Assembly (NCBI GenBank): GCA_037445145.1
Contig: JBBILB010000004.1
Coordinates: 15,555-79,554, forward strand
DNA: 64,000 nucleotides
Reading direction: 5' to 3'
From: Candidatus Woesearchaeota archaeon
GTDB lineage: Archaea > Nanobdellota > Nanobdellia > Woesearchaeales > ARS49
Shown here one piece after another: positions 5,093 to 43,167 of this stretch (position 1 is the first letter of the stretch; each line of letters begins with the position of its first letter). The position numbers and the translations under genes are program-made. Below the pieces are notes generated by a model. The model was not told the DNA's origin. It saw only the letters and a list, made by a program, of their open reading frames with translations, and searched no databases.

Positions 5093-6393
5093 TAGTCAGG
5101 GCACCCCGTGGTGCGGAGCTTCAAAACCTGATAGTCTTCTGTCCTGCCGCCATCAGACACATAAACGCGCATTCTGAAAGGCTCGCCTGCAGGGGGCGTG
5201 GTGATTTCTCCCGGTGATGCAGGCTCTGTCCTAAACGTAACAAGGTCCTCGTCAGGGTCAACCGCCCTTAGTTTTGCAGTCCATGTTTCAGGCCATTTTA
5301 TCACAAGCTCATCGCCAGTGAGGAATATTGACGGCTTTCCCTCGCAGGTGCCAAGCGGAATGAACTCATACCTGTCAAGCGCCGTCTGGTTAATCCACAC
5401 CAGCGCAGGATACCTGTTTGCCCTGAGAATCCAGAACTCCAAAGGCTTGCCGCGCAATCTTGACTCTTCATCCCTAACAATGATTATGTCATCAGTTCCC
5501 TGGTCAAAATCATTCCTGAAAACATTCTTGACAATTGTGACAGGGGTTGCTGCAGTGCTCAGGTTGCGGGGATCAAATGTTGCGTCATTTATTTCGCCAA
5601 GCACAATGCTTTGGACAAAAAGGTAGAATTTTGCAAGGTGGACAGGATAGCCAAGCGAGAACTGGTCAAGAGTTGTGTTCCTTTTTGTCGTAAGGTCTGT
5701 AATGTTGACCTGCCAGCGGACAAGCACTGTGAAGAACTGCTCTGTTTGAATCTGGGTGATGTTTTCAGCAATCATCACGCTAACATTAGGCCTGCCTGCG
5801 GCAATTGAAAGCCCCTGCGCCCCAAAAACCGCCCAGTCAGTGCATTTTGGAAGGTTAAAGCTGATGTATGACTCGAGCTGCTCCTGGATTGAGTCCCTCC
5901 CCGGCTTGAACAGCGGCGGGAGCAATGATTTTCCATAATAACCGCCGTAAAATTCCTTCATGACAGATCCTGTTGTCTGGTTGAACACGTAAGGAAATGA
6001 GGGGAAGGGGTACTCGTCCGGCTCTGCATAATAAAGCGTGCCAATATCCTGCACAGGCCTTGTTATCAGGTAGCTGACATTGAGCCCCTCGTATTCAGCA
6101 TACCTCGAGCCCTTTTCCGCGGGCTGGACATCAGGAGTCAGGCCGCCCTGCATCCTGTACAAGACACCCCCCTGCTTGCCAAGAAGCTCAAGCCCTGCCA
6201 TTGTCGTTATGTCAAGGCAGGACTGAACATATTCCCTTACCGGCTGGACAGCAACCTGCCTGAGCCTTTGCTGCCCTGCCTCCGGCTCTGTCTGCATTGT
6301 TGCGGTCTGCGTACCGAGCCATATGACAAGGATTGCCGCGAACAGCAATATGATGCCCATGGTTATCATAAGCGTGAGCTGTGCATTTTTCAT
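5092..6393 (-). CDS. Hypothetical membrane-anchored/secreted protein (433 aa) with a pilin-like or signal-anchor N-terminus
   Basis: ORF 5092..6453 trimmed to ATG 6393, which forms an ATGA overlap with the upstream stop at 6390. N-terminus is MKNAQLTLMITMGIILLFAAILVIWLG (short basic head plus hydrophobic helix). Many N-x-S/T sequons. No family recognised. Confidence 0.7.
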   Translation of the reverse strand: MKNAQLTLMITMGIILLFAAILVIWLGTQTATMQTEPEAGQQRLRQVAVQPVREYVQSCLDITTMAGLELLGKQGGVLYRMQGGLTPDVQPAEKGSRYAEYEGLNVSYLITRPVQDIGTLYYAEPDEYPFPSFPYVFNQTTGSVMKEFYGGYYGKSLLPPLFKPGRDSIQEQLESYISFNLPKCTDWAVFGAQGLSIAAGRPNVSVMIAENITQIQTEQFFTVLVRWQVNITDLTTKRNTTLDQFSLGYPVHLAKFYLFVQSIVLGEINDATFDPRNLSTAATPVTIVKNVFRNDFDQGTDDIIIVRDEESRLRGKPLEFWILRANRYPALVWINQTALDRYEFIPLGTCEGKPSIFLTGDELVIKWPETWTAKLRAVDPDEDLVTFRTEPASPGEITTPPAGEPFRMRVYVSDGGRTEDYQVLKLRTTGCPD

Positions 6394-7565
6394 GGTCTCA
6401 ATTTTCCTGTCAGGGCAGGCCATGCCCTGACAATCGGGCTTGCTTCCAAACAATCATTCTCGTATCCTGGCTCGCACCTGTGCCTTGCAATAATGTTGAA
6501 GCCCGTGCCTGTCTGGTTTTCGCAGAATGCCCTTGTGTCATACACCTTGACAAGGTTAAGGCAAGGGTCTTTGCCAAGGTTGATATTGGAATACCTGACA
6601 CCGATATAGTCTATTGGCACAGGGCTTGACTCTTTGTAAGGCAGGATTGTGTATTCCGGTCTCAGATTTTTTTCAAGGAAGCCAAAAATGGCCTTGTTGC
6701 CGTTCTGCGCGAGATAAATGTGGTTGAACAACCGCGACCTTGGGAAATAAAGGAAGTTCATGCCGGGATTTTCAGGCTTGTGCAATACCTGCATTACGTA
6801 ATAACTCATTGTTGCCATTGGGCCTGTTATTTTTTCCAAAATTCCTGCCGGGGGCAGTGAAAGGCTGCCGTTTGGAAGATAAATGACTGCATTAAGCGAG
6901 GGGCTGTACCAGACATTTGAGCCGCAGGACGCAAAGCCCGTAATTTCAGGATTGACATTCTTGCACAAATCCGCACTCTTGTCCAGCGCAAGCAGGAATG
7001 AGCGCGTTGTGTGGTTTACTGGAACATTAAGCGTTGCTCCCACGGCAATTGCTGCAGGAGTCTTGAGGATGCAGATGCTGTTAATGCAGGGGACTGCCTT
7101 ATTGCCAATGTTGCAGCTGCTGCCAAGATATTCCTCAACAAGGACATTTTTGACCAGATAATCATACTTGTTAAGCACAGCTTCGTACGAGTCGCAGAAC
7201 AAGGTGTGGCGGTCAGGGGAAGTTTCCTGCGCGAGCTGGAGAAGCTGGAGCGCAAGCCTCTTTGTGCGGGTTGTCCAGTTCCCATTCTCGCAGACATAGT
7301 CAAGGATGCTCTGGGAATTGTTGACGCACCTTGGCCATAGCCGTTCATCGCCCAACTCAAACCAACGCAAAATATCCCCGTCATAGCTGTCATTGCCAAG
7401 CGTGTGCAAAAGGCACTGGGTCTCATTCGCGCACGCGCCGCCCATTGACAAGTCCCATGAAAAACTGACTGCCACCCTCTGCCAGTCAGCGCCTATGTCA
7501 GCAAGCACCCCAGGCAAAAAAACTGCTACAAATACCAGCAATGCCGCAAATGTTGTTCTTCTCAT
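6390..7565 (-). CDS. Hypothetical secreted cysteine-containing protein (391 aa)
   Basis: ORF 6390..7691 trimmed to ATG 7565, preceded by a GAGGGTG SD-like site. MRRTTFAALLVFVAVFLPGVLA is a Sec-type signal peptide. It lies 28 nt downstream of the preceding gene. Confidence 0.7.
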   Translation of the reverse strand: MRRTTFAALLVFVAVFLPGVLADIGADWQRVAVSFSWDLSMGGACANETQCLLHTLGNDSYDGDILRWFELGDERLWPRCVNNSQSILDYVCENGNWTTRTKRLALQLLQLAQETSPDRHTLFCDSYEAVLNKYDYLVKNVLVEEYLGSSCNIGNKAVPCINSICILKTPAAIAVGATLNVPVNHTTRSFLLALDKSADLCKNVNPEITGFASCGSNVWYSPSLNAVIYLPNGSLSLPPAGILEKITGPMATMSYYVMQVLHKPENPGMNFLYFPRSRLFNHIYLAQNGNKAIFGFLEKNLRPEYTILPYKESSPVPIDYIGVRYSNINLGKDPCLNLVKVYDTRAFCENQTGTGFNIIARHRCEPGYENDCLEASPIVRAWPALTGKLRP

Positions 7566-7593
7566 CACACCCTCTTTTTTTGAAAATACTCTG

Positions 7594-9363
7594 CTATTCC
7601 TCCCTGGGCATCCTGCAGATAAACCCTTCCTCTCCAATCCTGTAGTATGAATTGAGCTGCTGGCAGGCAGTGCCGTTCCAGCACTGGTCATAAGCGCAGC
7701 AACCTGAAACCGCTATGCCCTTAATTCCTGTAAGTGCAGGAGACCATTTTATGCTCTTGTTAATCATTCCAGCAAGCTCGCTCGTGAAATCCCATTTGCC
7801 GTTCGGCTGGCACACTGCGTGCGGCTTTGTGCTCTCATGAATATTGGCAAGGACTGCGCCGCAGGGGGTGACGCTGTTGTTCACAAGCACGTCATGCGGC
7901 GGCTGCCTGAACACGTCCTTGAGCTGGAGGATTGTGCTTGACTGCGGGATGCGGCAGCCAAAGAACTGGCCCTTGTAATTAATCACGCGGTCAGCGCCAA
8001 CAGGAAGGTAAGGCACAAAGTCCCCTGTCGGGATAAACACCTTGTTCCAGCAGCCGCCAAGCCCATTCGGGTATGCGGGGTCATTGTAGTATTCCTTGAT
8101 GTCATCATCCTCACTGCAGCAATAAGTCCCTGTCCAGCTGTACCCCGCAGAAGTGCAACTCGGCTCATCCTTAGAATCAAGATCTTTAGTCCAGTCGCCG
8201 TCAGAAGCGCAGTAATAAGTGTCCTCAAAAGAAGGGTTTGTCATCCCCATATCAAGACCATTGATTGATGAGAATGGCCCTGATATGCCGCCGCACTCAT
8301 AAACAGTCCTGTCAGAGCAGGAATACTCATGCGAGACCCTGCCAAAATTGACAATCCTGAACCCGCCAAAATCCTTGGTTATGCCTTCAAGCTGGCTTCC
8401 GCAGCTGAAGAATGCAGTGCCGTTTGAAACAACAGAGCCGTCAGGACAATTCATTTCATGAATTTCACCAAGTTCTGCCAAAGGCACCCACTGCCATTCA
8501 TCATTCACGTTCTTGCCGCAAATGGAATCAATTGTGGTGTTTTCAACAACAAGCTGGTATTTCGTGCATTTCTTAAAATAATTCCGCTCAGTGCATTCCT
8601 GCCTTGTGCTATGGGGAATCCTGCCAACAAACTGGCAGCTTGTGAAGTTAACACCGCAGCAATACCCATTGTACCAGTCACCGCCCTTGTCAACACAGTC
8701 CCTATAAGTTCCTTCGTTGACATCGCAAACTTGATTGTTGTTTGTGTCAGCGCAGACAAAAACCTCATCACTAGGGTTCTGTGTCTCATTGCGCACGTAA
8801 TCCCAGTCATCTGTCTCCGTGTTCTCAACCCACGCAAGCACCCCAGGAATGCCTGAATAAACCCTGAAAAGGTTTGATGCAGGAGAAACATTAACCAGTG
8901 AGCTGATTATGCCAAGCGAAAGAGGGTCAGCATCTCTTGAAACACTACCCCAAATCTCATAAGGAACCATCCTTGCTTCAAGGAATGTCATCCCTGTGCT
9001 GTGGCTGCCAATATACCCTGAATAAGTAAAGTTTTCTGCAGGCGTATTTCCAAGATACCGCTCAAAAATAAGGCCGATTCCAGAGCTTGCCTTAAATACC
9101 CAGGACGTGGTGTAAACCTTGGCGCCGCCCTGCCACAATTCAAAAATCATGCTGTTGTGGTTATGGGAATTGTGCGAAATGTGCGGAGAAAAAACAACCT
9201 TGTCAAAAGTCTTGTTCATACCAAAAAAAACATTGCCGGCAGGACAGCACATCCCGCCTGTTGTCCTGTAAACCTCAACAACCTGCACCTCAAAAGGCAT
9301 TGCAAAAACAGCACAGCTAAGCGCTATTAAGAGAATACTTAGTATTACTGCTGTTCGTTGCAT
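7594..9363 (-). CDS. Hypothetical secreted cysteine-rich protein (589 aa)
   Basis: ATG 9363 lies 6 nt after GAGGAGG. Signal peptide is MQRTAVILSILLIALSCAVFA. Recurring W-x-G-x-Y-C-C motifs (GDWYNGYCCG, YSWTGTYCCS) and SGCCAYDQCWNGTAC. First gene of the four-gene operon. Confidence 0.75.
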   Translation of the reverse strand: MQRTAVILSILLIALSCAVFAMPFEVQVVEVYRTTGGMCCPAGNVFFGMNKTFDKVVFSPHISHNSHNHNSMIFELWQGGAKVYTTSWVFKASSGIGLIFERYLGNTPAENFTYSGYIGSHSTGMTFLEARMVPYEIWGSVSRDADPLSLGIISSLVNVSPASNLFRVYSGIPGVLAWVENTETDDWDYVRNETQNPSDEVFVCADTNNNQVCDVNEGTYRDCVDKGGDWYNGYCCGVNFTSCQFVGRIPHSTRQECTERNYFKKCTKYQLVVENTTIDSICGKNVNDEWQWVPLAELGEIHEMNCPDGSVVSNGTAFFSCGSQLEGITKDFGGFRIVNFGRVSHEYSCSDRTVYECGGISGPFSSINGLDMGMTNPSFEDTYYCASDGDWTKDLDSKDEPSCTSAGYSWTGTYCCSEDDDIKEYYNDPAYPNGLGGCWNKVFIPTGDFVPYLPVGADRVINYKGQFFGCRIPQSSTILQLKDVFRQPPHDVLVNNSVTPCGAVLANIHESTKPHAVCQPNGKWDFTSELAGMINKSIKWSPALTGIKGIAVSGCCAYDQCWNGTACQQLNSYYRIGEEGFICRMPREE

Positions 9364-9434
9364 GCACAACCTCCTCTTTTAAATAGATAGGGCGCCCTTG
9401 GTTTAAAAAGCTTATCTCATATTATTACCGAAAG

Positions 9435-9444
9435 ATAAATATAA
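9435..9444 (+). promoter_or_regulatory. TATA-box-like element for the 9466 gene
   Basis: ATAAATATAA lies 22-31 nt upstream of ATG 9466. Confidence 0.4.
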
Positions 9445-9465
9445 TGAGGCTTTTTCGCAGCAGGC

Positions 9466-10035
9466 ATGAAAGAAGTTGCAATAATTCTTGTCATCCTGCT
9501 TGCTATAGCAGGAGGGCTTGCATGGTATTTTCTCCAGCCCGCTGCAATTCCTGACGCGGAAATCCGGTCGTTTGCTGATGCCTGCATTCAGGAAAGCAGC
9601 AGCTTCGCAAGATTTGTCCAGGCAGTACGTTCAAATGACCCTGCACTCTGCGCACAGCAGACGGCAGTCATGATGAAATTATGCATGGCGCGCATCAGCA
9701 AGGACTCCAGGGTCTGCGACGCTGCAGAGCCTGACATAAAGCCCGCGTGCCTGGCGCTTGCTGCTGATGACAAGGCGCAATGCCCTGCAGGCGATTTCCT
9801 GTGCAAGGCGCTGCTTGGCGACATGCAGGCATGCAGGGAAATGGATTTGGTGCGGTTTGCGTGCGAAAAGGCGCTGGCAGGAAATACAGACTATGCCGGC
9901 TCGGAAAGGATGGAAGAGGACTGCAAACAGCTTGCGGTCCACATCATTGCGCTGGAAAGCGGGGACAAGCGCAACTGCAGAAAAATCAGGAATGAAATTC
10001 TCAGGGAAGAATGCATGAGCATCCTCAAAGGCTAA
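9466..10035 (+). CDS. Hypothetical N-terminally anchored protein with Cys-pair helical repeats (189 aa)
   Basis: MKEVAIILVILLAIAGGLAWYF TM helix, then repeated C..(8-15)..C units (ALCAQQTAVMMKLCMARI, NCRKIRNEILREECM). Divergent from the Cys-rich operon. Confidence 0.6.
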   Translation: MKEVAIILVILLAIAGGLAWYFLQPAAIPDAEIRSFADACIQESSSFARFVQAVRSNDPALCAQQTAVMMKLCMARISKDSRVCDAAEPDIKPACLALAADDKAQCPAGDFLCKALLGDMQACREMDLVRFACEKALAGNTDYAGSERMEEDCKQLAVHIIALESGDKRNCRKIRNEILREECMSILKG

Positions 10036-17137: not shown

Positions 17138-17941
17138 TTATTTGACAGGCTTCATCCCCTTCCATGCAGTGTCAAACAAGGTCTCCAGCGCGTTGGCAAA
17201 GAACGGCGTGTTGACCCATATTCCAACATCATACGTCGGGTGGACTTCCTTGTCGTCCAGGATCATGAACACCAAACCCTTGCCGTCTACAATGCAGAAC
17301 CTTGCCTTTGAGTCTGTATGCCTGACTTCTGCGACCTCTGAAACATCCTTGAGCGCGTCCCTGGTCTCCTTCGTGATCGGTGCAGCAATGCGTATCTTGA
17401 CGCCTTTCTTCTTGAGCTTTTCAAAAACAGGCTTGAGCCCCTCAACCTTCCTGAGGAAGCCCTGCGGTGTTGTCATTATTGTCACACTTTTCTCGGCATT
17501 CCTTATGGTAAGCTCAAGGTGGGAGTAAAGGTTATGCCTTCCACGCAAAGAACCAGAAAGGTCAGCCGGCTCCACAAGCTCCACGCCCTGCGTGTGAAGC
17601 AAATTGAGCTCGTTAAGCACGTCACTGGACTTGAGTTGCTCAAGGCGCTTGATGCGCTCATCAGCATCTTCCTTCATATTCTTCTTGACGCGCTCAAGCA
17701 CTTCCTGCGGCGGAATCGCGATGTACTTTATCGGCTTGCCGAGCTTCATCACGACAAAACCCTTTCTTTCAAGGCTTTCAAGAACATCATAGCTCCTTGA
17801 CCTAGGAACATTGGCAATGTCAGAAAGCTCCCCTGCTGTCGCAACACCACGAGAGAGCAAGGCAGTCCAAATCTTGACCTCATAGAGGTTCAAGGAGAAA
17901 TACCGACGGAGCTTGCTCAAAAATTCTTCTTTGACAATCAT
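17138..17941 (-). CDS. TrmB-family transcriptional regulator (paralog 1)
   Basis: wHTH segment WTALLSRGVATAGELSDIANVPRSRSYDVLESLERKGFVVMKLGKPIKYIAIPP, a coiled-coil linker, and a C-terminal TrmB-type effector domain. GGGGGGAGGT SD before the ATG. Confidence 0.85.
   Translation of the reverse strand: MIVKEEFLSKLRRYFSLNLYEVKIWTALLSRGVATAGELSDIANVPRSRSYDVLESLERKGFVVMKLGKPIKYIAIPPQEVLERVKKNMKEDADERIKRLEQLKSSDVLNELNLLHTQGVELVEPADLSGSLRGRHNLYSHLELTIRNAEKSVTIMTTPQGFLRKVEGLKPVFEKLKKKGVKIRIAAPITKETRDALKDVSEVAEVRHTDSKARFCIVDGKGLVFMILDDKEVHPTYDVGIWVNTPFFANALETLFDTAWKGMKPVK
17708..17869 (-). repeat. Dispersed coding repeat: the 54-codon wHTH segment is identical at protein level to 39768-39929
   Basis: Both copies encode the same 54 residues. 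The DNA is similar but not identical, with mostly third-position differences in the stretches I compared by eye. Confidence 0.85.
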
Positions 17942-19148: not shown

Positions 19149-19187
19149 GACACGGAAAAACAAACCGGCATTTAAAAAAGTAGAGCA

Positions 19188-19823
19188 TTAATAATCCTCA
19201 ATCCTAACAATTCCATAACCGTACAGCAGGTATGGCGTGCGCCTTGTATCGTACGGCTCATAATATGGCTTGGGTGCGCGGGTGTACTGGAGGTTGAACC
19301 TGGCAATATCCTTGGGAATTGTGTAGAAGTTGTTGTACCTGTATTTTCCGATTTTCTGCACCTCATAAATGTCATCAAAATGGGTGAAGTCAACAACGCG
19401 CCGGTTATCGTACGGGTTTTGGCTTGCGAAAGAATTGTAGTCCCTTAGCGTATAGCAGTTCCAGTCATTGTAATCATCAATGTCATTCTCGTCAAGGGAG
19501 TCATAAGGGTTTTCATTTATGATTTTCAGCTGGTCTTCCCTGCGCAGTTTTTGCAGGTCAGAACGCTTTGCTGTTTTTGCAGTCAGCGGCTCGTAAGAAT
19601 CATAATTGTCTGCGTTCGCAAACCGGTTGTAGTCATCAAGCGAAATACACGCGTATTTGTCAAAATCACCGGCAACATCAGGGTCAACAGCGTCATAAGG
19701 ATTGTGCAGGGCATAATTCACATTATTCCTGTAATCAACCTCGTCAGCATAATACAAAACCCTTGCAGAAGAAAGCTCAAGGCAAATGACTGCAACAAGG
19801 AATAATGCAAAAAGCTTTTTCAT
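19188..19823 (-). CDS. Secreted Tyr/Asp/Asn-rich protein with internal duplication (211 aa)
   Basis: Signal peptide MKKLFALFLVAVICLELSSA. Internal repeat NPYDAVDPDVAGDFDKYACISLDDYNRFA / NPYDSLDENDIDDYNDWNCYTLRDYNSFA. Ends ..YGYGIVRIEDY. Confidence 0.7.
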   Translation of the reverse strand: MKKLFALFLVAVICLELSSARVLYYADEVDYRNNVNYALHNPYDAVDPDVAGDFDKYACISLDDYNRFANADNYDSYEPLTAKTAKRSDLQKLRREDQLKIINENPYDSLDENDIDDYNDWNCYTLRDYNSFASQNPYDNRRVVDFTHFDDIYEVQKIGKYRYNNFYTIPKDIARFNLQYTRAPKPYYEPYDTRRTPYLLYGYGIVRIEDY

Positions 19824-19825
19824 TC

Positions 19826-20338
19826 TCAGTACCCGTATGGAAGATACCTTGACGCGTACGCGCCCACACGCGAGTACCTGTATGGATTGTAATACGGGCT
19901 TGTGAAGCCAAGCTCGTAATCATCACTGTATGGCCTGTAATCATACCCGTAATAAGTACCAACATCGTAATAAGGATAATAATAGTCAAGGTAGCCGTAT
20001 TTGTAATGCCCGGCAGGATGGCCGGAATCATAATTCCTTGTTGAGCTCTCGTATTTAGAACTTCGTGAAAAAGCAAATTCCCTTGACCTGCCATAATCAT
20101 AATGGTCACTGACACGGCTGCTGCGCCAGCCCCCATAATTCTGCGATGAATGCTCGTATTCTGACTCGCGCACACTTACGCTCTCAGAACTGCTCGAGCG
20201 GGAATAATCGCTTGAGTAGCCATCATAATAAGTCCTACCGTGATAATCATAATAATCATCAACGTACACGTGCGCTGAAACGCTGAAAGCTGAAAGAACT
20301 AATGCAACAAACAATGCAGATATATTGGCCGTTTTCAT
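19826..20338 (-). CDS. Secreted tyrosine-rich low-complexity protein (170 aa)
   Basis: ORF trimmed to ATG 20338 (MKTANISALFVALVLSAFSVSAHV signal peptide). The mature part is dominated by Y/D/S/G/R (YVDDYYDYHGRTYYDGYSSDY .. GYLDYYYPYYDVGTYYGYDYRPY .. RYLPYGY). It ends 2 nt before the next gene. Confidence 0.65.
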   Translation of the reverse strand: MKTANISALFVALVLSAFSVSAHVYVDDYYDYHGRTYYDGYSSDYSRSSSSESVSVRESEYEHSSQNYGGWRSSRVSDHYDYGRSREFAFSRSSKYESSTRNYDSGHPAGHYKYGYLDYYYPYYDVGTYYGYDYRPYSDDYELGFTSPYYNPYRYSRVGAYASRYLPYGY

Positions 20339-20430
20339 ACTGCTGCAACCCCCTTCGCTATGGGTATTTTGTAGTGAAGGCTGCTTAAAAAGGTTCGCAA
20401 AAAAAAAGCACAAGCATGAATTCACCCATA

Positions 20431-20443
20431 ATATTTATATATG
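20431..20443 (+). promoter_or_regulatory. TATA-box-like element for the 20471 operon
   Basis: ATATTTATATATG lies about 30-40 nt upstream of the GTG starts at 20471/20480. AAGGTGAT SD at 20468-20475. Confidence 0.45.
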
Positions 20444-20470: not shown

Positions 20471-21649
20471 GTGATTAATGTGAGGAGACGCGGTCAGGCA
20501 TCAGGCAGCGCGGCAGCGACACTCATAGGCCTGATAACGCTTTTGCTGGTGTTCTACATAATTTTCCTTCCGCCAGAGGAGCGAAGGGAGCTCCTGATGG
20601 AGGAAGAAGGAGTCCTGCCTCCAGGAGTGATTGCGCCAGGAGGCGAAGTCATCTTCAAGGCAGCGCCAGGAAGGCTCAATTATGTCGGCCAGACAGAATT
20701 CGAGCACTTTATCCCAAACCTGTTCCTCACTGAGGAGCGCCAGGCAAAAGTCCTTGCAGAGGCAAGCCCGTTCATTATCAAGAAGGGCTGGTTCAGGAAG
20801 CAGTTCAAGAACATCAACTTCTACATCCCTGACCTTGGGACCGTTGACAATGTCATGCTCAGCTTCCAAACACCCATTCACAGAGGCAGGCTGAAAATCT
20901 TCGTCAACGGACAGCAGGTGTTTGAGAACAACATAATAACAAACAACCCTGCGCCAGTGCCAATACCAAAGAGCCTTTTGCGCGAAAACAACGCAGTGGA
21001 ATTCCAGGTATGGGGATTTGGGCTAATATTCTCAAGACAGTACCAGCTCACTGACGTAAAGATAATTGGCGAAATAACAGACGTGAAAAAGCAGGAGGCA
21101 GCAAACTCATTCGGCATTCCAGACATTGAATACCAGAACATTGAGTCAGCATACCTCGGATTCTACCCAATATGCGACAAGGACGACGTGGGAGTGCTTG
21201 ACATAACTCTCAACAACAAAATAATTTATTCGGCAGTGCCTGTCTGCGAGAGCCCAAGCCGCCAAGACCTGTTCAAGGAGGACTTTGTTTCAGGCAAGAA
21301 CACCCTTGGCTTCAGGCTGCGCTCAGGAATGGCCCGCATAGAAAACATAATAATAAAGACATTCGTAAAGCCGACAAAAGGATATTCCGACTTCTTCTTC
21401 CTGGAGCCGGACATATTCACAGCGATTGCAACAGGAAAAGCCCATGCAGTCCTTGAGATAGAATTTGTTGACGACGGCAGACTCAAAGAAGCAGAAACAA
21501 ACATCAACGGAAGGCTGGACTTGCTTTCCCAGCGCGACCCCAAGTATGTCCGCGACATTTCCGCGGTTATCAGGGACGGCAACAATTACATCGGGCTAAT
21601 GCCGATGACTGACCTTAACGTCATCAGCCTGACAGTGCGGGTGGAGTGA
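20471..21649 (+). CDS. Hypothetical surface protein with class III (type IV pilin-like) signal-like N-terminus and three-fold internal repeat
   Basis: GTG start (the alternative GTG at 20480 gives MRRRGQASGS..). RRRGQASGSAAATLIGLITLLLVFYIIF is a basic patch, then G-Q, then a hydrophobic helix. Three repeat units: RLKIFVNGQQVF..NNAVEFQV, VLDITLNNKIIY..GKNTLGFRL, VLEIEFVDDGRL..GNNYIGLMP. Confidence 0.7.
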   Translation: MINVRRRGQASGSAAATLIGLITLLLVFYIIFLPPEERRELLMEEEGVLPPGVIAPGGEVIFKAAPGRLNYVGQTEFEHFIPNLFLTEERQAKVLAEASPFIIKKGWFRKQFKNINFYIPDLGTVDNVMLSFQTPIHRGRLKIFVNGQQVFENNIITNNPAPVPIPKSLLRENNAVEFQVWGFGLIFSRQYQLTDVKIIGEITDVKKQEAANSFGIPDIEYQNIESAYLGFYPICDKDDVGVLDITLNNKIIYSAVPVCESPSRQDLFKEDFVSGKNTLGFRLRSGMARIENIIIKTFVKPTKGYSDFFFLEPDIFTAIATGKAHAVLEIEFVDDGRLKEAETNINGRLDLLSQRDPKYVRDISAVIRDGNNYIGLMPMTDLNVISLTVRVE

Positions 21650-21651
21650 CC

Positions 21652-23130
21652 ATGGCGGAAGCCGCCACTGGCACAGAGAAGCCAAGCGGATGGGGCGTTC
21701 TTATCCTTGCATTTCTACTTATAATATGGCATGTCTTTGACCTTCTCGTAATGAGGCGCCAGGCGCTGGTATCATTCACAATACTGGCAGTAACATTCGG
21801 CGTATACGCGTTTTTGGCACTTATCGCAAAAGGAATAATGAAGGAAAAGGACTGGAAGTTTACCCTATGGTTTTTGGCAATGTGGCTTGTGCCGATAATT
21901 CTCGGGCTTGTTGCAAAAATCGTGAAGGACTTGCTAGTGCTTGAGGCAGTAACAATGGCAGCGGTTTATTTCCCGCTGTTCATATTTTATTTCCTCACGA
22001 GGGGAGCTGGCTCAAAAACAATCACGATATACTTCATAATCTGGGCATTCGGGCTTGTTTTCTGGGCAGTCACTTACGGCGACCTCGTCAGTTATGCAAG
22101 AGAGCAAAAGATTGAGCTTGGCTTCAACCCACTGCTGTCTTACGAGGCAATCATCAGCTGGACAAAAAGAGCAATAATAAACATGTACACCAGAGGTGTG
22201 GAAACAGGAAAGATGCTTGGAACTGAGATTAATATAGCAATAAGGGCTGCAAAGGGAGACTATTACACAGGACAGGTTGACACTGCAGCAAAAAAACGGC
22301 TTGGGGTATACATAGAAAACTTCAGGCCAACAGAGCCGTTCTTTTACGAAAACTCACCAGTAACTGCTTTCGCAACCCTCAAGGCAGAAACCCTTGACAA
22401 GCCTCTTGACATTCACATTACCTGCGATGCAGACGGAACAACCGCTGCAAACATAATAAGGCCAAAGGATACTTTCAACATCATCACTGCAGAACAGCAC
22501 GAGATTGACTGCATCTGGAACAAGGGAGCGCTTAAAAAGGGAATTCACAACCTCAAACTCAAGGCAGAATTTGAGTTCACAACAAGAGCATACATAAAGG
22601 CATACATAATGGATAGGGATAGGCTCAGAGAATACAGAAGGCAGAACATTGACCCGCTCGCAAACGTGCCTGACAGAACCCCTGTAGCAATATACACTTC
22701 AGGACCTGTGCGCATAGGAATGAGCCTTGGACAACAACCAATTGCGCTCGGCAGAAGCGGTGAGGCATTGCAAAGCTGGGGCATCACTGTTGAAAATATC
22801 TGGGACGGGCAGCTTGAGCAGCTCTCAATGCTATACTTCTTTGTGCCAAAAGGAATCAAGATTGCCCATGTAGAAGGAATTAACATCCAGCAAACATCCT
22901 GTGCGGCAATCCCTGAAGAGGAGCAGCAGGCATGCGATGACGGCCTGGTAAATGTTTATTCCCTAAACCCTGGAGCTGCAAGGAATTTCAGAATCCCTCT
23001 TGAAGTCACCAACCCTGAGCAAGTGCTTGGCAATGCACCAATAGCAGTGCAGAACTTTAAGGTCAGCGCACAATACAGGTATCTGCTTGAGCGCAAGTCA
23101 GTAACAGATGTCAAAGGAGCAACAGCATGA
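21652..23130 (+). CDS. Hypothetical polytopic membrane protein (about 5 TM helices) with a C-terminal domain paralogous to the three downstream lipobox proteins
   Basis: ATG 21652 lies 5 nt after GGTGGAG SD (the ORF opens at GTG 21646, overlapping the upstream stop). N-terminal hydrophobic helices (VLILAFLLIIWHVF, FTILAVTFGVYAFLALIA, LWFLAMWLVPIILGLVA, AAVYFPLFIFYFL, IYFIIWAFGLVFWAV). The C-terminal domain shares GVYIENF, SGPVRIGM, VENIWDGQL and AQYRY landmarks with the paralogs. Confidence 0.75.
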   Translation: MAEAATGTEKPSGWGVLILAFLLIIWHVFDLLVMRRQALVSFTILAVTFGVYAFLALIAKGIMKEKDWKFTLWFLAMWLVPIILGLVAKIVKDLLVLEAVTMAAVYFPLFIFYFLTRGAGSKTITIYFIIWAFGLVFWAVTYGDLVSYAREQKIELGFNPLLSYEAIISWTKRAIINMYTRGVETGKMLGTEINIAIRAAKGDYYTGQVDTAAKKRLGVYIENFRPTEPFFYENSPVTAFATLKAETLDKPLDIHITCDADGTTAANIIRPKDTFNIITAEQHEIDCIWNKGALKKGIHNLKLKAEFEFTTRAYIKAYIMDRDRLREYRRQNIDPLANVPDRTPVAIYTSGPVRIGMSLGQQPIALGRSGEALQSWGITVENIWDGQLEQLSMLYFFVPKGIKIAHVEGINIQQTSCAAIPEEEQQACDDGLVNVYSLNPGAARNFRIPLEVTNPEQVLGNAPIAVQNFKVSAQYRYLLERKSVTDVKGATA

Positions 23131-24050
23131 AAAAACAATTCTTGGTTATCGCAATAATGGCGCTGGTCCTGTCAGGATGCCAGTACGGACTTTTCCAGCG
23201 CAAGGACACAATGCACCTGCCAGAAGTCAATATAGGCACGCAGGGTGTTGAGCTCTTTTTTGCACAAGGCACCCCGCCACGGGAAGTATACGAGAGAAGC
23301 CAATTCTCACTGCTAGTAACGCTCTCCAATCTCGGCACAACAGACGTTGAAGACGGCATTTACGCTCTAAGCTATGAACCGCAATACCTTTACCTGCCAA
23401 GGCAGCAAAACCAAGGAAGGTTCAATGTCCGCGGAAAGTCAATATTCAACCCGCAGGGAGAGGAACGCCTGCTGCAATTCAATTTTGACACAAAACCCCT
23501 CGGGCCGCAGCTTCAGGGCTATCCTGCAACAATAACACTCACCGCATGCTATCCATACAGGACAAATGCACCAATAACAGTCTGCATTGACACAGACCTC
23601 ACAGGCAAGGCAGGAGGAAAAGTGTGCACTCCTGCACTGCAGGCATTCGGCCAGGGACAGGGAGCGCCTGTCGCAGTAACAACAGTTGAAACAAGGATGC
23701 TGCCCCACGAGCATGAAAACAGGGTCAGGCCTGAGTTCGTGCTCACAATCAAAAACCTTGGAATGGGAGAGGTTGTTGCGCAGGAGCTCTACCGCGACGC
23801 ATGCTCAGGAAGAGCGTTGGGACCAGAAGGGTGGGGTGTTGTTTCTGTTGAGGCAGCACTTTCTGAAAAACAACTCACGTGCGCGCCAACACCAGTAAAA
23901 ATAAAGCAACAGGGAGAAACGCGGATTGTCTGCACGCTGCCTGAAGGGATTGATTCAAGGATTGGCAGCTACACAGCGCCGCTCACCATAACACTTGGAT
24001 ACGGCTACGTTACAAGCATTAACACTCAGACAAGGATTATGAAGCCATGA
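23127..24050 (+). CDS. Hypothetical lipobox protein, paralog 1 of the double beta-sandwich family (307 aa)
   Basis: ATGA overlap with the upstream gene; AAAGGAG SD. MKKQFLVIAIMALVLSGC lipobox. Landmarks LVTLSNLG, ACYPYRTNAPITVCID, GQGQGAPVAVTTVE, IKNLGMGEV, LGYGY. Confidence 0.75.
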   Translation: MKKQFLVIAIMALVLSGCQYGLFQRKDTMHLPEVNIGTQGVELFFAQGTPPREVYERSQFSLLVTLSNLGTTDVEDGIYALSYEPQYLYLPRQQNQGRFNVRGKSIFNPQGEERLLQFNFDTKPLGPQLQGYPATITLTACYPYRTNAPITVCIDTDLTGKAGGKVCTPALQAFGQGQGAPVAVTTVETRMLPHEHENRVRPEFVLTIKNLGMGEVVAQELYRDACSGRALGPEGWGVVSVEAALSEKQLTCAPTPVKIKQQGETRIVCTLPEGIDSRIGSYTAPLTITLGYGYVTSINTQTRIMKP

Positions 24051-24060
24051 CGACCAAACA

Positions 24061-24069
24061 TTTATATAA
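24061..24069 (+). promoter_or_regulatory. TATA-box-like element (internal promoter) ahead of paralog 2
   Basis: TTTATATAA lies 23-31 nt upstream of ATG 24092, just after the stop of the preceding gene. Confidence 0.4.
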
Positions 24070-24091
24070 CTCAAAACCGTGGTGCAGAAGC

Positions 24092-25015
24092 ATGCGGAAA
24101 GCGCTTTTGCTTTGCACAGTCCTGATTCTGCTTTTTTCCGGCTGCAGGGCTGCCGCCCCCCAAGAAAGACCCACTTTTGTTGAGGAATTCAGAAGGGGAA
24201 CAGAAGGGCTTTACATGAGATTTGCGCAGAACCTGCCGCCAACAAGGCTGTTCTCCGGTGAAGAACTGGCAGTTGTCCTTGAGCTTGAGAACCGCGGAAC
24301 ATACACTATCGGCGGACCGGGCGACAGGATATACCTTTCAGGCTTTGATCCTGCAATAGTAAGCGGCATATCGCCCGCAGGAGAGCAGATTCCTTTGCTT
24401 GAGGGCAGAAGCCAGTTCGTAAGCCAGGGCGGGGTTGACACCGTCACGTTCAGGGCAATGACAAAAGTGCTTCAGGACAGGTATCCCTTGAGATTACTGG
24501 CAACTGCGTGCTATAATTATGAGACAGTCGCTTCTGCAAACATGTGCATAGACCCTGACCCTTACGCACCAGGAATAAGGCCTCGGGTGTGCGTGCCGCA
24601 GAACGTCGGGCTTGGCGAAGGGCAGGGCGCGCCTGTCGCAGTCACCCTTGTTGAGGTTGACGCAAGCCCTGGCAAGACAAGGTTCAAGATACACGTTCAG
24701 AATGTCGGCGGCGGGGAAGTATTCAGGTCAGGAGGCCAGACATTAAACAAGTGCGCGCCAGGCTCCAGGCTAGACTTTGACGAGATCGACTATGTTGAGC
24801 TTGCTGACGTGATTGTCAGCGGAGTTTCAATCAAAGGAAGCTGCAGACCGCTGGACAAGGGACACATAAGGCTGACAAACAATCAAGGGCTTGTGTACTG
24901 CGAGTTTGACAGGCCACGCGGAGAAGCAGCATACGTGAGCCCAATGACAATTGTGCTAAGATACGGCTACAGGACTTCAGTGTTCCACCAGATGGAAATT
25001 CTGCCAATAACATAA
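24092..25015 (+). CDS. Hypothetical lipobox protein, paralog 2 (307 aa from ATG 24092)
   Basis: The ORF opens at 24047 (ATGA overlap), but ATG 24092 gives a canonical MRKALLLCTVLILLFSGC lipobox signal. Landmarks VLELENRG, ACYNYETVASANMCID, GEGQGAPVAVTLVE, VQNVGGGEV, LRYGY. Confidence 0.75.
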   Translation: MRKALLLCTVLILLFSGCRAAAPQERPTFVEEFRRGTEGLYMRFAQNLPPTRLFSGEELAVVLELENRGTYTIGGPGDRIYLSGFDPAIVSGISPAGEQIPLLEGRSQFVSQGGVDTVTFRAMTKVLQDRYPLRLLATACYNYETVASANMCIDPDPYAPGIRPRVCVPQNVGLGEGQGAPVAVTLVEVDASPGKTRFKIHVQNVGGGEVFRSGGQTLNKCAPGSRLDFDEIDYVELADVIVSGVSIKGSCRPLDKGHIRLTNNQGLVYCEFDRPRGEAAYVSPMTIVLRYGYRTSVFHQMEILPIT

Positions 25016-25065
25016 AGCAGTCAGCAAATGTTGCAAGTTTTTACAGCGCTCGCCTGAATTTTATG

Positions 25066-25105
25066 CGCTGGACGCTATACGCTAATAATTGTTATGCGTC
25101 CAGCG
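25066..25105 (+). other. GC-rich 10-bp-stem hairpin in the spacer between paralogs 2 and 3
   Basis: CGCTGGACGC (25066-25075) and GCGTCCAGCG (25096-25105) are perfect complements separated by a 20-nt AT-rich loop. Located 50 nt after the stop at 25015. Confidence 0.5.
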
Positions 25106-25167
25106 TCCCGCGCAACGAAACCGCGGCGCTGAAAGCGCGTTTTCTACCAAATCAATTCAACGAAAGG

Positions 25168-25176
25168 TTTATATAA
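25168..25176 (+). promoter_or_regulatory. TATA-box-like element ahead of paralog 3
   Basis: TTTATATAA lies 23-31 nt upstream of ATG 25199. Confidence 0.45.
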
Positions 25177-25198
25177 CAATTATTCTCGGTAAAGGAAC

Positions 25199-26140
25199 AT
25201 GCGAAGGATAATTGCGGTTATCATTCTGCTCACACTCGTCACTGCATGCGGTCCAGGCAAGAAGGCAGAAAAGATTGAGCTCACTGCGCCTTTTGTTGGC
25301 GGCAAAGCAGGGCTTGAGGCAGAATTCATTGACTTCCGAAAAGAGGTTTTTGACGGCGGGAGGGACCCATTTGACGTTGTAGTAAAGCTTGAGAACAAAG
25401 GCGAGGCAACAGTTGTTCCTGAGCGCGTGCGAGTAAAGCTGTCAGGCATAAATCCTGCAGAGTTCGGCAAGCTTGAGGAAGACCTTGTCAAGAGCCCCAC
25501 AGATGAGCTTTATGCAGTGCGAAAGGACCCGCAAGGCAATGTAATCCCCGGCGGGCAGGCAACTGTTGAGTTCACAGACCTCAACCACTTCTCGCCGATT
25601 GCAGGCGCGCAGGTCGCGTTCCCATTGCGCGCAGACATCTGCTACACTTATACAACAGAAGCGGTAAGCAAGCTTTGCGTACGCGAAAACCTGCTTGCGC
25701 CAGAGCCCGGCGGAATATGCGAAATAACCGAGGACAAGCCAATATTCAACTCAGGCGCACCCGTACAAATCGGTTCTGTAAAAGAAACTGCGCGGGGCAA
25801 GGACAAGATAAGCTTCAGCTTTGAAATCTCAAACTCAGGGACAGGCAATGTTTACGACCGCGGCTCATTCTGCGACAAAAGCGCAAGAGCAAAGGAAAAC
25901 AGGGTTTATGTGATTGTTGACACAAGAATGCCCGGACTGCAGTGCACAGGACTCACGACAACAGGAACAAAGGCAGAAGGATCAATAACACTTTATGACG
26001 GTAAAAAGATAGTCACGTGCACGCAGACAATAACCACAAGGTCTGACTTTGAGCAACAGATAAGCATTGAAGCAGTTTATGACTACGAAGAATACAAGCA
26101 GACAGAAATAACAGTCAAGAGCTCAGGGGAAGAGGAATAA
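25199..26140 (+). CDS. Hypothetical lipobox protein, paralog 3 (313 aa)
   Basis: MRRIIAVIILLTLVTAC lipobox. Landmarks VVKLENKG, ICYTYTTEAVSKLCVR, NSGAPVQIGSVKE, ISNSGTGNV, AVYDY. Confidence 0.75.
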   Translation: MRRIIAVIILLTLVTACGPGKKAEKIELTAPFVGGKAGLEAEFIDFRKEVFDGGRDPFDVVVKLENKGEATVVPERVRVKLSGINPAEFGKLEEDLVKSPTDELYAVRKDPQGNVIPGGQATVEFTDLNHFSPIAGAQVAFPLRADICYTYTTEAVSKLCVRENLLAPEPGGICEITEDKPIFNSGAPVQIGSVKETARGKDKISFSFEISNSGTGNVYDRGSFCDKSARAKENRVYVIVDTRMPGLQCTGLTTTGTKAEGSITLYDGKKIVTCTQTITTRSDFEQQISIEAVYDYEEYKQTEITVKSSGEEE

Positions 26141-39194: not shown

Positions 39195-39998
39195 TTACTT
39201 GACTGCCTTGCCAGAATCCCAGATTGTATTAAAGATATTTTCAAAGGATTTTGCGAATGATTCTGTGCTGACCCAGACGCCAAAGTCATAATTCGGGTGG
39301 GCGTTTGCATCATCCAAAACCATAAATGTGACGTTCTTGCCATCAACAACAACAAACCGGGCCTTTGCGTCATCAACATGCCTGACCTGTGCGTGCGCTG
39401 ATAACGCCTTTGCTGCAGCACGGGATTCCTTTGTTATCGGGGCTGCTATCCTAATCCTTACGCCTCGCTCCTTTGCCTTAGAAATCACACCACCCAAAGC
39501 ATCAAGCTTCCTCACCAATCCTTGATCTGTTGTCAGAATTGACACGCTTTTTTGAGCACCCTTAATAATCGAAGCAAGGTGGTTGTGAAGGTTTGTGCGA
39601 CCCTTTACGGCGCCGGTAAGGTCTGCGGGCTCAACAAGGTCAACACCCTGCTTGTGAAGCATGTTAAGGTCTGCGAGGACATCACTTCCCTTAAGGCTTT
39701 CAAGAAGCTGCACCCGCTTTCCTGCATCCTCTGAAATATTTTTCTTGACCCTCTCAAGCACTTCTGCAGGAGGTATTGCGATGTACTTTATGGGCTTGCC
39801 AAGCTTCATTACAACAAAACCTTTTCTTTCAAGACTTTCAAGAACATCATAAGAACGTGATCTTGGAACGTTTGCAATGTCAGAAAGCTCTCCCGCAGTT
39901 GCAACACCACGTGAGAGTAATGCTGTCCACAATTTTGCTTCATAACTGTTGAGGCCGAAATCCTTAAGTTTGTTCAAAAAATCCTTTTGCACAATCAT
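39195..39998 (-). CDS. TrmB-family transcriptional regulator (paralog 2), adjacent to the putative origin
   Basis: ORF trimmed to ATG 39998 (MIVQKDFLNKLKDF.., parallel to MIVKEEFLSKLRRYF.. of paralog 1). Same 54-aa wHTH; divergent C-terminal domain. Confidence 0.85.
   Translation of the reverse strand: MIVQKDFLNKLKDFGLNSYEAKLWTALLSRGVATAGELSDIANVPRSRSYDVLESLERKGFVVMKLGKPIKYIAIPPAEVLERVKKNISEDAGKRVQLLESLKGSDVLADLNMLHKQGVDLVEPADLTGAVKGRTNLHNHLASIIKGAQKSVSILTTDQGLVRKLDALGGVISKAKERGVRIRIAAPITKESRAAAKALSAHAQVRHVDDAKARFVVVDGKNVTFMVLDDANAHPNYDFGVWVSTESFAKSFENIFNTIWDSGKAVK
39768..39929 (-). repeat. Second copy of the 54-codon TrmB wHTH coding repeat (see 17708-17869)
   Basis: Encodes WTALLSRGVATAGELSDIANVPRSRSYDVLESLERKGFVVMKLGKPIKYIAIPP, identical to paralog 1. 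Confidence 0.85.
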
Positions 39999-40127
39999 TT
40001 TTACAAAGCCCCCTTCATTATTTAGCAATCTTGATATTCATTCAAATAATATCCTTGTAGAGGTACACTATATTTAAAGCTTTTGACTTTTTAGTATTGA
40101 GGAGTAGCAACATTTTTTGTTTTTATT

Positions 40128-40153
40128 CCTACCCCTCTATTTCTTCTGGAAAA
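40128..40153 (-). promoter_or_regulatory. ORB-like origin recognition box (left, inverted)
   Basis: The reverse complement reads TTTTCCAGAAGAAATAGAGGGGTAGG, i.e. TCCAGAAGAAA plus a G-string, matching the right-hand box at 16 of 19 core positions. Confidence 0.6.
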
Positions 40154-40376
40154 TGAGTTTTATATAATTAAATTGGTTTTTGTGTTATCTATATCATATA
40201 TATTTTTAAATAAAGATATTCACATATATATTTTTAAATTAATTTTCATTTTTATTTATTTTCTATATATAAATAAATTAATAAGTATATAAAACTTCAC
40301 TTTTTTATTCTCTATAATTAAATATATATTATTAAATACACAAAACACACTAATACAACATTTCTTTAATTCCATT
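40154..40376. other. AT-rich duplex-unwinding-element candidate of oriC
   Basis: About 220 nt of almost pure A/T (ATATAT runs, TTTTTAAAT) flanked by inverted ORB-like boxes. The only long non-coding, strongly AT-rich tract in the window, directly upstream of cdc6. Confidence 0.6.
40195..40239 (+). repeat. Perfect 17-nt direct repeat inside the AT-rich tract
   Basis: CATATATATTTTTAAAT occurs at 40195-40211 and 40223-40239 (28-nt period). Confidence 0.85.
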
Positions 40377-40400
40377 CCTCCAAAAGAAACAAAGGGGAGG
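40377..40400 (+). promoter_or_regulatory. ORB-like origin recognition box (right)
   Basis: CCTCCAAAAGAAACAAAGGGGAGG, i.e. TCCAAAAGAAAC plus a G-string, in opposite orientation to the box at 40128-40153. Confidence 0.6.
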
Positions 40401-40424
40401 CGCACAACCTCAAATAAAGAAAAG

Positions 40425-40433
40425 CATAAATAC
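40425..40433 (+). promoter_or_regulatory. TATA-box-like element for cdc6
   Basis: CATAAATAC lies 24-32 nt upstream of ATG 40457. Confidence 0.4.
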
Positions 40434-40456
40434 CAGTGTTTCAACTGGAAAGAAAA

Positions 40457-43166: not shown

Positions 43167-43167
43167 A

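Follow-up and report, generated by a model that had tools for sequence, protein, structure and literature searches.

A tyrosine-rich gene pair next to pelota

The 64,000-nucleotide (nt) window analysed here, part of contig JBBILB010000004.1 from a Candidatus Woesearchaeota archaeon, contains on its minus strand two adjacent genes for secreted, tyrosine-rich proteins, which we call A and B. Gene A (19826-20338) starts with ATG and encodes a Tyr/Ser/Arg/Asp-rich protein of 170 residues, and gene B (19188-19823) encodes an acidic protein of 211 residues that ends in ..YGYGIVRIEDY. The genes are 2 nt apart, with the stop codon of A and the start codon of B in the arrangement TGA GA ATG (19824-19828, minus strand), and are transcribed divergently from a five-gene envelope operon on the plus strand (20471-26140, GTG start at 20471), from which a 132-nt spacer separates them. 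An earlier note on this DNA had given the same distances, the same divergent layout and the same C-terminus of B, all of which are borne out. The flanking genes (pelota, TrmB, PheRS alpha and beta, RFC, Cdc6 and PolD) mark the window as archaeal.

Tyrosine is strongly enriched in both proteins. Mature A, the 148 residues that follow the VSA|H cleavage site, contains 36 Tyr (24%), 30 Ser (20%) and 13 residues each of Asp, Gly and Arg (9% each); about 35 Tyr had been counted before, and both Tyr runs quoted at that time, YVDDYYDYHGRTYYDGY and GYLDYYYPYYDVGTYYGYDYRPY, are found in the protein. The product of gene B has 27 Asp, 26 Tyr and 18 Asn, and its mature chain is 14% Tyr. Family means are 22% Tyr for A and 12% for B. 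The window proteome has 3.1% Tyr and, among the window genes, only A and B exceed 5.3%, giving an enrichment relative to the window with binomial P values of 6e-22 (A) and 3e-10 (B). A Tyr-rich composition of the kind found in dityrosine proteins of the spore-coat and oocyst-wall type is thus present in A as well as in B. The earlier note had called the proteins "low-complexity", but A is not merely of low complexity, as 23 alignment columns are invariant and a predicted beta-hairpin core is conserved. An origin of the low complexity from tandem DNA repeats was considered and discarded: Tandem Repeats Finder shows no repeat array spanning A and B, and the sole repeat, a 23-nt microrepeat in three copies, lies at 20273-20296, where A codes for its signal peptide.

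Both proteins appear to be exported by the Sec pathway. Signal peptides were read by rule, as a basic n-region, a hydrophobic h-region and small residues at positions -3 and -1, and are assigned to residues 1-22 of A (MKTANISALFVALVLSAFSVSA|H; 20273-20338, minus strand) and residues 1-20 of B (...LELSSA|R; 19764-19823, minus strand). The two N-termini consist of a basic n-region, a hydrophobic core of 12-15 residues and an A-x-A type site, features that are conserved in both families; the n/h/c pattern is kept in 22 of 24 members of the A family, and the [AS]-x-A site throughout the B family. No further transmembrane (TM) segment follows, the maximum 15-residue Kyte-Doolittle mean past residue 30 being -0.44 for A and 0.19 for B. 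By this rule-based reading both are Sec-dependent secreted proteins, as had been claimed. Neither shows an anchor of the lipoprotein or sortase type: there is no Cys at the cleavage site, and the C-termini are hydrophilic, Tyr-rich tails and not TM sorting signals like PGF-CTERM.

Conservation and taxonomic range

A and B are genuine coding genes under purifying selection. When compared with the closest relative, which is 80% identical (dS ~1), A has a ratio of nonsynonymous to synonymous substitutions (dN/dS) of 0.13 and B one of 0.11. For pelota the ratio is 0.07, obtained with another relative, L019 (84% amino acid identity, dS 1.6). The earlier note had named spurious open reading frames (ORFs) in the region upstream of pelota as the finding that would overturn it. 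That A and B are such non-functional ORFs, or sequence conserved by composition only, has next to no probability. Their extreme composition, and the precomputed annotations of the A and B homologs, in which no protein is assigned a Pfam domain, could be taken to point that way. The idea is refuted by the dN/dS values of about 0.1 and by the invariant motifs that follow one another in fixed order in both alignments. In addition, bias-corrected HMMER E-values reach 1e-77 for A and 1e-117 for B, start codon, Shine-Dalgarno sequence and coupling are all conserved, and the core of B is confidently predicted.

A has 24 homolog clusters, with E-values from 1e-13 to 1e-77, and B has 42. All A and B homologs with an organism label come from metagenome-assembled genomes (MAGs) of Candidatus Woesearchaeota or Nanoarchaeia, many A and B homologs lie on the same contigs, and one more distant B-like member is likewise labelled Woesearchaeota. 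A HMMER scan of 1.84 billion proteins with the B profile found just 22 representative clusters, and in a scan of one genome per species 12 of 185,579 species matched. From these distributions, A and B appear to be two orphan families restricted to Woesearchaeota. Compared in the same genomes, identities are 46-61% for A, 55-73% for B and 73-76% for pelota, so that A evolves fastest.

The loci L015, L016, L021 and L024 carry the GenBank title "uncultured Methanosarcinales archaeon". The gene order of L021 and L024 (operon, A, B, pelota, TrmB) is, gene for gene, that of the Woesearchaeota MAGs, and in L015 and L016 only the neighbouring A and B genes are seen; these bins are probably mislabelled. 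One lineage (L003) has between B and pelota an additional ORF of 165 residues (9102-9599), of ordinary composition and without a signal peptide.

Predicted structure of protein A

A is predicted to be mostly disordered around a conserved, charged beta-hairpin. The overall AlphaFold2 model has a mean predicted local distance difference test score (pLDDT) of 52.6 and a predicted template modelling score (pTM) of 0.23, and 104 of the 170 residues have a pLDDT below 50. The conserved core (residues 41-103; 20030-20218, minus strand), delimited by the model together with per-column conservation, is predicted to form a long hairpin with strands at residues 41-66 and 78-103. Averaged over blocks of ten residues, its pLDDT is 44-75; the four blocks of residues 51-90 have values of 72, 66, 57 and 75, and the two end blocks 44 and 50, while nearly all of the remaining mature protein stays below 50. 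The hairpin is the most conserved region of A. Conservation falls on alternate positions, E52, V54, E58 and E60 in strand 1 and Y80, Y82, R84, R86, F88, F90 and R92 in strand 2, which argues for a beta-strand with one functional face; this aromatic/arginine face reads Y-Y-R-R-F-F-R.

The Pro/Tyr-rich C-terminal tail (residues 115-170; 19829-19996, minus strand; YPYYDVGT.YG.DYRP ... TSPYYNPYRYSRVGAY.SRYLPYGY-COOH) has a pLDDT below 50; its Pro/Tyr motifs hardly vary within the family, and the PYGY at its end is invariant. Despite the low pLDDT outside the hairpin, the conserved core and the invariant motifs suggest that A is partly ordered.

Predicted structure of protein B and family searches

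The folded core of B (residues 21-165; 19329-19763, minus strand) is acidic, with an isoelectric point (pI) of 4.4, a net charge of -13 and 30 acidic residues in 145. AlphaFold2 predicts it as all-helical with moderate confidence: the pLDDT means of ten-residue blocks are ~64-88 for residues 21-160 and 68-88 up to residue 140, and the pTM of the whole model is 0.59. By eye, the core consists of four units, each made of a helix and a [ND]-P-[YF]-D-x-x-D loop. Aligned against each other with hhalign, the two halves are homologous (probability 97.8%, E 1e-12, 45 columns), which defines repeat 1 at residues 38-82 (ALHNPYDAVDPDVAGDFDKYACISLDDYNRFANADNYDSYEPLTA; 19578-19712, minus strand) and repeat 2 at residues 102-146 (INENPYDSLDENDIDDYNDWNCYTLRDYNSFASQNPYDNRRVVDF; 19386-19520, minus strand). 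The internal duplication described in the earlier note is therefore real, but the spacing in its motif has to be corrected, as four residues and not two separate D[FY] from Cys. The repeats contain one Cys each, Cys59 and Cys123, and the invariance of both, even in relatives of 22-30% identity, suggests that they form a disulfide.

The core is followed by a basic, Tyr/Pro-rich tail (residues 166-211; 19191-19328, minus strand; PYYEPYD.R.(S/T)PY.LYGYG..R.EDY) with a pI of 9.0; the pLDDT of residues 164-211 is below 50. The tails of A and B share the motif PYY[NE]PY, with an hhalign score of 15.5 compared to 9.9 +/- 2.2 for column-shuffled controls. A common sorting signal in the two tails was considered and put aside as a weak lead, the match comprising just 10 residues around PYY.PY and 1 of 100 shuffles scoring as high.

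The earlier note had not recognised the family, and the searches agree with it. No Pfam family matched A or B at E <= 0.1, and none was common to 24 members of the B family at E <= 1; EF-hand, dockerin, TSP3 and Excalibur gave no match in these 24 even at that threshold. The only NCBIfam match of B, the model Rv0361_Cterm, was rejected, since it scored 22 bits with a cut-off of 37 and sits over the signal peptide region. In searches of profiles against the PDB, A had no match, and the best match of B, Tetraspanin-15 EC2 (E 0.11), was taken as chance. A Foldseek search with the B model gave best E-values of 4.2 in the PDB and 0.62 in BFVD. The B core, a compact repeat domain for which no sequence or fold relative was found, is a candidate for a new fold on the basis of its model. 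In the literature on Tyr-rich secreted proteins of archaea and DPANN and on Woesearchaeota surface proteins, we found no description of this family.

The acidic core also bears on a different explanation, namely that A and B interact with cations or minerals (Ca2+, Fe, silica) and, for example, control encrustation in hot-spring or groundwater habitats. The low pI and the acidic residues of the core fit this idea, as do its four regularly spaced Asp-rich loops after helices, the Asp/Ser-rich composition of A and MAG titles (CG10, JZ, OBJ) that suggest groundwater or environmental series, the habitats being read from sample codes only. The loops, however, are unlike canonical Ca-binding motifs and without a match to EF-hand, dockerin, Excalibur or TSP3; other sample types occur as well (one sand sample and one SMAG assembly, by title), with no clear habitat restriction; and the idea offers no explanation of why the Tyr/Pro motifs and the PYGY at the C-terminus are invariant. 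We consider a cation- or mineral-related role quite unlikely.

Transcription and translation signals

A and B appear to form a bicistronic unit of their own between the operon and pelota, because they have their own TATA-like element, a tight junction and a T tract after B, and the operon has a separate TATA element. The putative A-B promoter (20371-20392, minus strand), ~45-50 nt upstream of the ATG of A, consists of the TATA-like CTTTTTAAG and the conserved TTCACTAC; a promoter function is suggested by the archaeal TATA consensus. In most, if not all, of 15 related loci the element sits equally far from the start of A, and its TATA-like part is TTTATATA in the distant relatives. A Shine-Dalgarno-like AAGGGGG (20349-20355, minus strand) precedes the ATG of A by 10 nt, and a GGGGG or GGAGG run stands ahead of this start in nearly all 15 loci. 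A longer form of A with a GTG start at 20425 was rejected, as the homologs start at the Met of MKT..., which is preceded by the conserved GGGGG Shine-Dalgarno sequence. In 15 of 15 loci examined the A-B gap is 0-3 nt, or the genes overlap as ATGA or TAATG, which points to translational coupling.

On the plus strand, TTTATATA at 20434-20441, 29 nt before the GTG of the operon and in a conserved "atatataaat" block, is likely the operon's own promoter, with its orientation inferred. Right after the stop codon of B and ~25 nt before the ATG of pelota (19148) lies a T6 tract/TTTTTTAAAT (19170-19179, minus strand), likely the A-B terminator combined with a separate pelota promoter; a similar CCTTTTAAAC/TTTTTTAA element follows B in 8 of the 15 loci. 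Scans for sigma-70 promoters and intrinsic terminators gave counts at the level of shuffled sequence, such models being uninformative for an archaeon.

The neighbouring envelope operon

The order of the syntenic locus, five-gene operon on the opposite strand, A, B, pelota, TrmB, PheRS, is the same in every syntenic relative. The product of operon gene 1 has an N-terminal membrane anchor, that of gene 2 a polytopic N-domain and an ectodomain, and genes 3-5 are paralogs, each for a lipoprotein with a lipobox (LSGC, FSGC, VTAC) and six other Cys that are invariant. Gene 1 was also considered as an archaeal type IV pilin, but its RRG|Q-like site is not kept in the orthologs (KKAQ, RRSAKIQ), and we read the segment as a membrane anchor. 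Apart from the lipoprotein signal and weak CARDB matches, the operon products had no Pfam or PDB relative.

The operon is phyletically wider than the gene pair, with 108 relatives of gene 1 compared to 42 of B and 24 of A. The labelled relatives of gene 1 are all Woesearchaeota or Nanoarchaeia, and the operon is divergent from pelota in every locus examined; from this distribution, it may encode a cell-surface structure central to this order. In the loci L031 and L032 (marine), L033 and L034 it lies directly opposite pelota, and no A- or B-like ORF was found within 9 kb. Gene 1 of L033 is closest to that of L023 (54% identity), which carries A and B, so judging by this identity and not by a tree, the pair was probably lost or relocated in L033, which would not represent an outgroup state. 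In L031 and L032 the spacer between pelota and the operon (8705-9000) is ~300 nt long and, by eye, contains several short GGTGGT/ACCACC inverted repeats.

The earlier note had proposed that A, B and the operon may belong to one envelope locus and that their adjacency be checked in relatives. The divergent arrangement is kept in 15 of 15 syntenic loci, so the adjacency holds within the clade, but a partnership with the operon does not follow, as the promoter elements are separate and back to back, the operon occurs without A-B, and B-like pairs occur without the operon. Neither consistent co-occurrence with the operon nor a sign of shared transcription, as would be expected of operon components, is seen for A-B. 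Judged by gene order, the link is positional and not obligate.

These data also bear on the explanation that A and B are accessory subunits that dock on the membrane-anchored and lipoprotein parts of a five-gene envelope complex. The conserved arrangement, which extends down to B identities of 41-45%, is consistent with it, and all seven products are extracytoplasmic (a TM-anchored protein, a polytopic protein, three lipobox lipoproteins, A and B). The lipoproteins moreover have a conserved C-terminal L.YGY strand motif that looks similar to the PYGY and LYGYG ends of A and B. Yet the operon stands intact beside pelota without A-B in L031-L034, its family is the wider one, pairs of B-like and Tyr-rich genes occur without it, the promoter elements are separate, and as the region is collinear in these genomes, the adjacency may be mere inherited position. 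A role as operon subunits is therefore, in our estimate, decidedly unlikely.

B-like genes outside the syntenic loci

All six distant B-like genes outside the syntenic loci (6/6) have a secreted Tyr-rich sequence next to them, nearby or in the same chain. No operon was found near them in the surrounding DNA, within which its absence was judged and which for some contigs is just 1.3-3.5 kb long. The B-like protein of L025 (P0075, 441 residues) has Tyr-rich flanks fused on both sides and a C-terminal TM anchor, and two further Tyr-rich ORFs follow it. L026 (P0080) and L027 (P0079) each have an adjoining secreted Tyr-rich ORF, and in L028 (P0084) a Tyr/Gly/Asn tail of ~200 residues is fused to the B-like protein. 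That of L029 (P0077, 362 residues) has Tyr-rich flanks of its own and lies near a gene for a secreted protein of 166 residues with 24 Tyr, 21 Ser, 17 Arg and 13 Asp. In L035, a secreted protein of 333 residues with 44 Tyr is encoded immediately downstream of the B-like gene.

Because all six distant genes keep a Tyr-rich companion and none is seen with the operon, the conserved unit, as far as gene neighbourhoods tell, is the B core plus a secreted Tyr-rich sequence and not A-B plus the operon. In L003 and L006, the A-like genes upstream of B genes of 43-47% identity are homologous to A (E 4e-10 and 5e-9). P0075 and P0088, whose Tyr-rich N-terminal regions resemble A by eye, were examined as "Rosetta stone" fusions of A and B and rejected, as the hidden Markov model (HMM) of the A family scores them at 5-7 bits, mostly on the signal peptide; they are fusions in composition only. 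Among 317 candidate ORFs, which are the greedy, non-overlapping ORFs of at least 100 residues in L001-L030 and do not include L035, all those listed with at least 10% Tyr are A-type, B-type or Tyr-rich partners. A metagenome scan for further distant B-like loci returned a single locus.

Two of the distant loci show further genes of interest. Within its segment 3365-7529, L029 encodes a prolipoprotein diacylglyceryl transferase of the bacterial type and of full length (Lgt, PF01790, E 1e-66), which lies ~3 kb from the B-like gene and has two DsbA-like thioredoxin genes and a DoxX gene on its flanks. A statement in PMC12462473 has it that no archaeal Lgt homologs have been identified so far; the L029 gene would be notable if its contig is archaeal. 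The DoxX assignment at 7128-7529, upstream of the B-like gene, was confirmed (PF07681, E 6e-7), and upstream of the B-like gene in L035 a multi-pass hydrophobic ORF (178-606) resembles DoxX by eye only. The occurrence of DoxX in one and of a DoxX-like ORF in the other of these otherwise unrelated loci may be coincidence, or it may reflect an extracytoplasmic thiol chemistry tied to the Cys pair of B.

Proposed function

Composition, predicted disorder and context make the role in a matrix or cement that the earlier note had suggested plausible. The pair most likely works beyond the cell membrane, where it would self-associate into a tyrosine-rich coat or adhesive. The full proposal, a co-translated, Sec-exported two-component extracellular coat or adhesive specific to Woesearchaeota, is the one that we favour, tentatively and short of calling it probable. 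A location at the cell surface is supported by the fusion relative in another Woesearchaeota, which is membrane-anchored.

In the proposed mechanism, B would be the folded hub, probably disulfide-stabilised and possibly cation-binding via its four [ND]-P-[YF]-D-x-x-D loops, and A would be its multivalent Tyr/Arg "sticker" partner. Tyr-Tyr, Tyr-Arg and Tyr-Pro contacts among the tails, the hairpin face of A and the acidic core of B would bind the two proteins together, and the same aromatic and cation-pi contacts would fasten them to the cell surface in a cohesive layer. This layer might reinforce the envelope, or it might serve as glue between the small cell and a host or substrate. Cross-linking by oxidation to dityrosine would be possible but is not required by the model. 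Nine Woesearchaeota MAGs were described to be without a tyrosine synthesis pathway (PMC11606122), which makes a protein with 22% Tyr costly, so that it is presumably kept by selection. Arguing from the same cost, the product is probably abundant.

Several results weigh against the coat or adhesive. Neither a family nor a fold match links A or B to a known structural or adhesive protein, and no oxidase, peroxidase, laccase or other cross-linking enzyme was found in the 39 of ~60 window genes scanned. Homology of the Tyr-rich partners in L025, L026, L027, L029 and L035 to A was not detected, their likeness being compositional. The confidence of the A hairpin is only moderate, the tail motif shared by A and B is only weakly significant, and the cation binding by B is read from the shape of loops that are not of the DxDxDG/EF-hand type and belong to no Pfam domain.

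A and B could instead be specific host- or glycan-recognition ligands, that is, a lectin-like or receptor-binding adhesin of a host-dependent DPANN cell and not a bulk coat. Surfaces that bind carbohydrates typically feature Tyr, Asp and Asn, one relative is membrane-anchored, and A evolves faster than B and pelota. The family is also patchy, being absent beside the operon in L031-L034 although gene 1 of L033 is nearest to that of L023, a pattern known from accessory host-range factors. However, no match to a lectin or carbohydrate-binding module, either as a fold or as a family, was found, and in the one pair with unsaturated dS, dN/dS is low with no sign of diversifying selection. The locus, furthermore, lies in a core, vertically inherited housekeeping region and not in a variable island. 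On balance, recognition ligands seem unlikely.

Returning to the self-associating coat or adhesive, a more far-reaching version would be an extracellular "sticker" system without a described counterpart. The disulfide-braced acidic hub B would recruit the largely disordered, Tyr/Arg-rich A into a condensate-like or cross-beta glue on the ultrasmall Woesearchaeota, holding them to hosts or particles, and the fast-evolving gene for the Tyr-rich partner would have been replaced repeatedly while the B hub was kept. We regard this version as speculative and rather improbable. If true, prokaryotes would have a counterpart to the Tyr-based adhesives of animals that needs no enzyme, and it would offer a way into the attachment of uncultured DPANN cells.

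Woesearchaeota are abundant, uncultured and ultrasmall and are thought to depend on other cells, and how they build their envelopes and attach is barely known; most of their surface genes are annotated as "hypothetical". A-B is a concrete candidate for this biology, as a delimited, conserved and probably well expressed extracellular module of extreme and costly composition (22-24% Tyr). If the pair is only a lineage-specific coat set, its interest would be modest and for specialists.

Other loci in the window

Beside pelota, a TrmB-family regulator (17138-17941, minus strand; orthologs in L019-L024) is exceptionally conserved: its first ~40 residues (MIVKEEFLSKLRRYF.LNLYEVKIWTALLSRGVATAGELS) are near-identical in relatives whose pelota is just 52-60% identical. 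A second TrmB paralog lies at 39195-40028. Directly upstream of cdc6/orc1 (40436-41686), an AT-rich intergenic stretch at ~40000-40460 contains several imperfect inverted repeats; PolD DP1/DP2 are encoded at 41646-46734, and the 40-42 kb bin has the lowest G+C content in the window (0.39). From these features, the stretch at ~40000-40460 is probably a replication origin. At the start of the window, a minus-strand gene (11-5092) encodes a protein of 1693 residues in which a bacterial Ig-like domain (Big_13) occurs together with a bacterial TSP3 repeat, and next to it, at 5092-9369 on the same strand, are three ORFs (453, 433 and 591 residues) without a Pfam match. The region 11-9369 looks like a further cluster of surface-protein genes.

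Comparison with known systems

By composition and presumed physics, A and B would be of a kind that is already known in general, secreted Tyr-rich structural or adhesive proteins, although the two families themselves appear to be undescribed. CotC and CotU, from the coat of Bacillus subtilis spores, are small proteins that combine Tyr with charged residues and are rich in Lys. Together with a tyrosine-rich coat component they are discussed in PMC7944565. A and B are similar to them, and to CotG, in being small Tyr-rich and charged proteins from adjacent or related genes. CotC and CotU build an insoluble, protective extracellular layer whose Tyr-rich proteins are presumed to be cross-linked. 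No sequence similarity between the two systems was detected, and the spore-coat proteins are made in the mother cell without a signal peptide, unlike A-B, which would be Sec-exported by an archaeon. In composition, the Lys-rich CotC and CotU differ from the Ser/Arg-rich A and from B with its folded acidic domain.

Tyr-based materials of eukaryotes include the Tyr-rich proteins of apicomplexan oocyst walls, the mussel foot and sandcastle-worm cement proteins, and resilin. Their cohesion depends on contacts of the aromatic and cation-pi type, on coacervation and on the chemistry of (di)tyrosine or 3,4-dihydroxyphenylalanine (DOPA). In being secreted, disordered and Tyr-rich, often with acidic or basic partners, they resemble A-B as predicted here. 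They belong, however, to another domain of life, without homology to A-B, and need a tyrosinase or peroxidase, neither of which was identified among the window genes scanned. In contrast to a pure low-complexity cement, A also holds a conserved hairpin core that is predicted to be ordered. Reviews of the eukaryotic materials are given in PMC9999432 and PMC12817120.

The core of B is superficially similar to EF-hand, dockerin, bacterial TSP3 and Excalibur domains in that its helices are each followed by an Asp/Asn-rich loop, and in being an internally duplicated part of an acidic extracellular protein. Its loop, [ND]-P-[YF]-D-x-x-D, differs from the DxDxDG or DxNxDG of these domains, and B has neither their canonical 12-residue loop nor an HMM or fold match to them.

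Finally, low-complexity domains of the FUS type combine Tyr "stickers" and Arg with Ser/Gly "spacers" and drive phase separation, hydrogel or cross-beta formation. Mature A resembles them in its residue grammar and its predicted disorder. FUS-type domains are intracellular, eukaryotic and show little positional conservation, whereas A is predicted to be secreted and keeps its 23 invariant columns.

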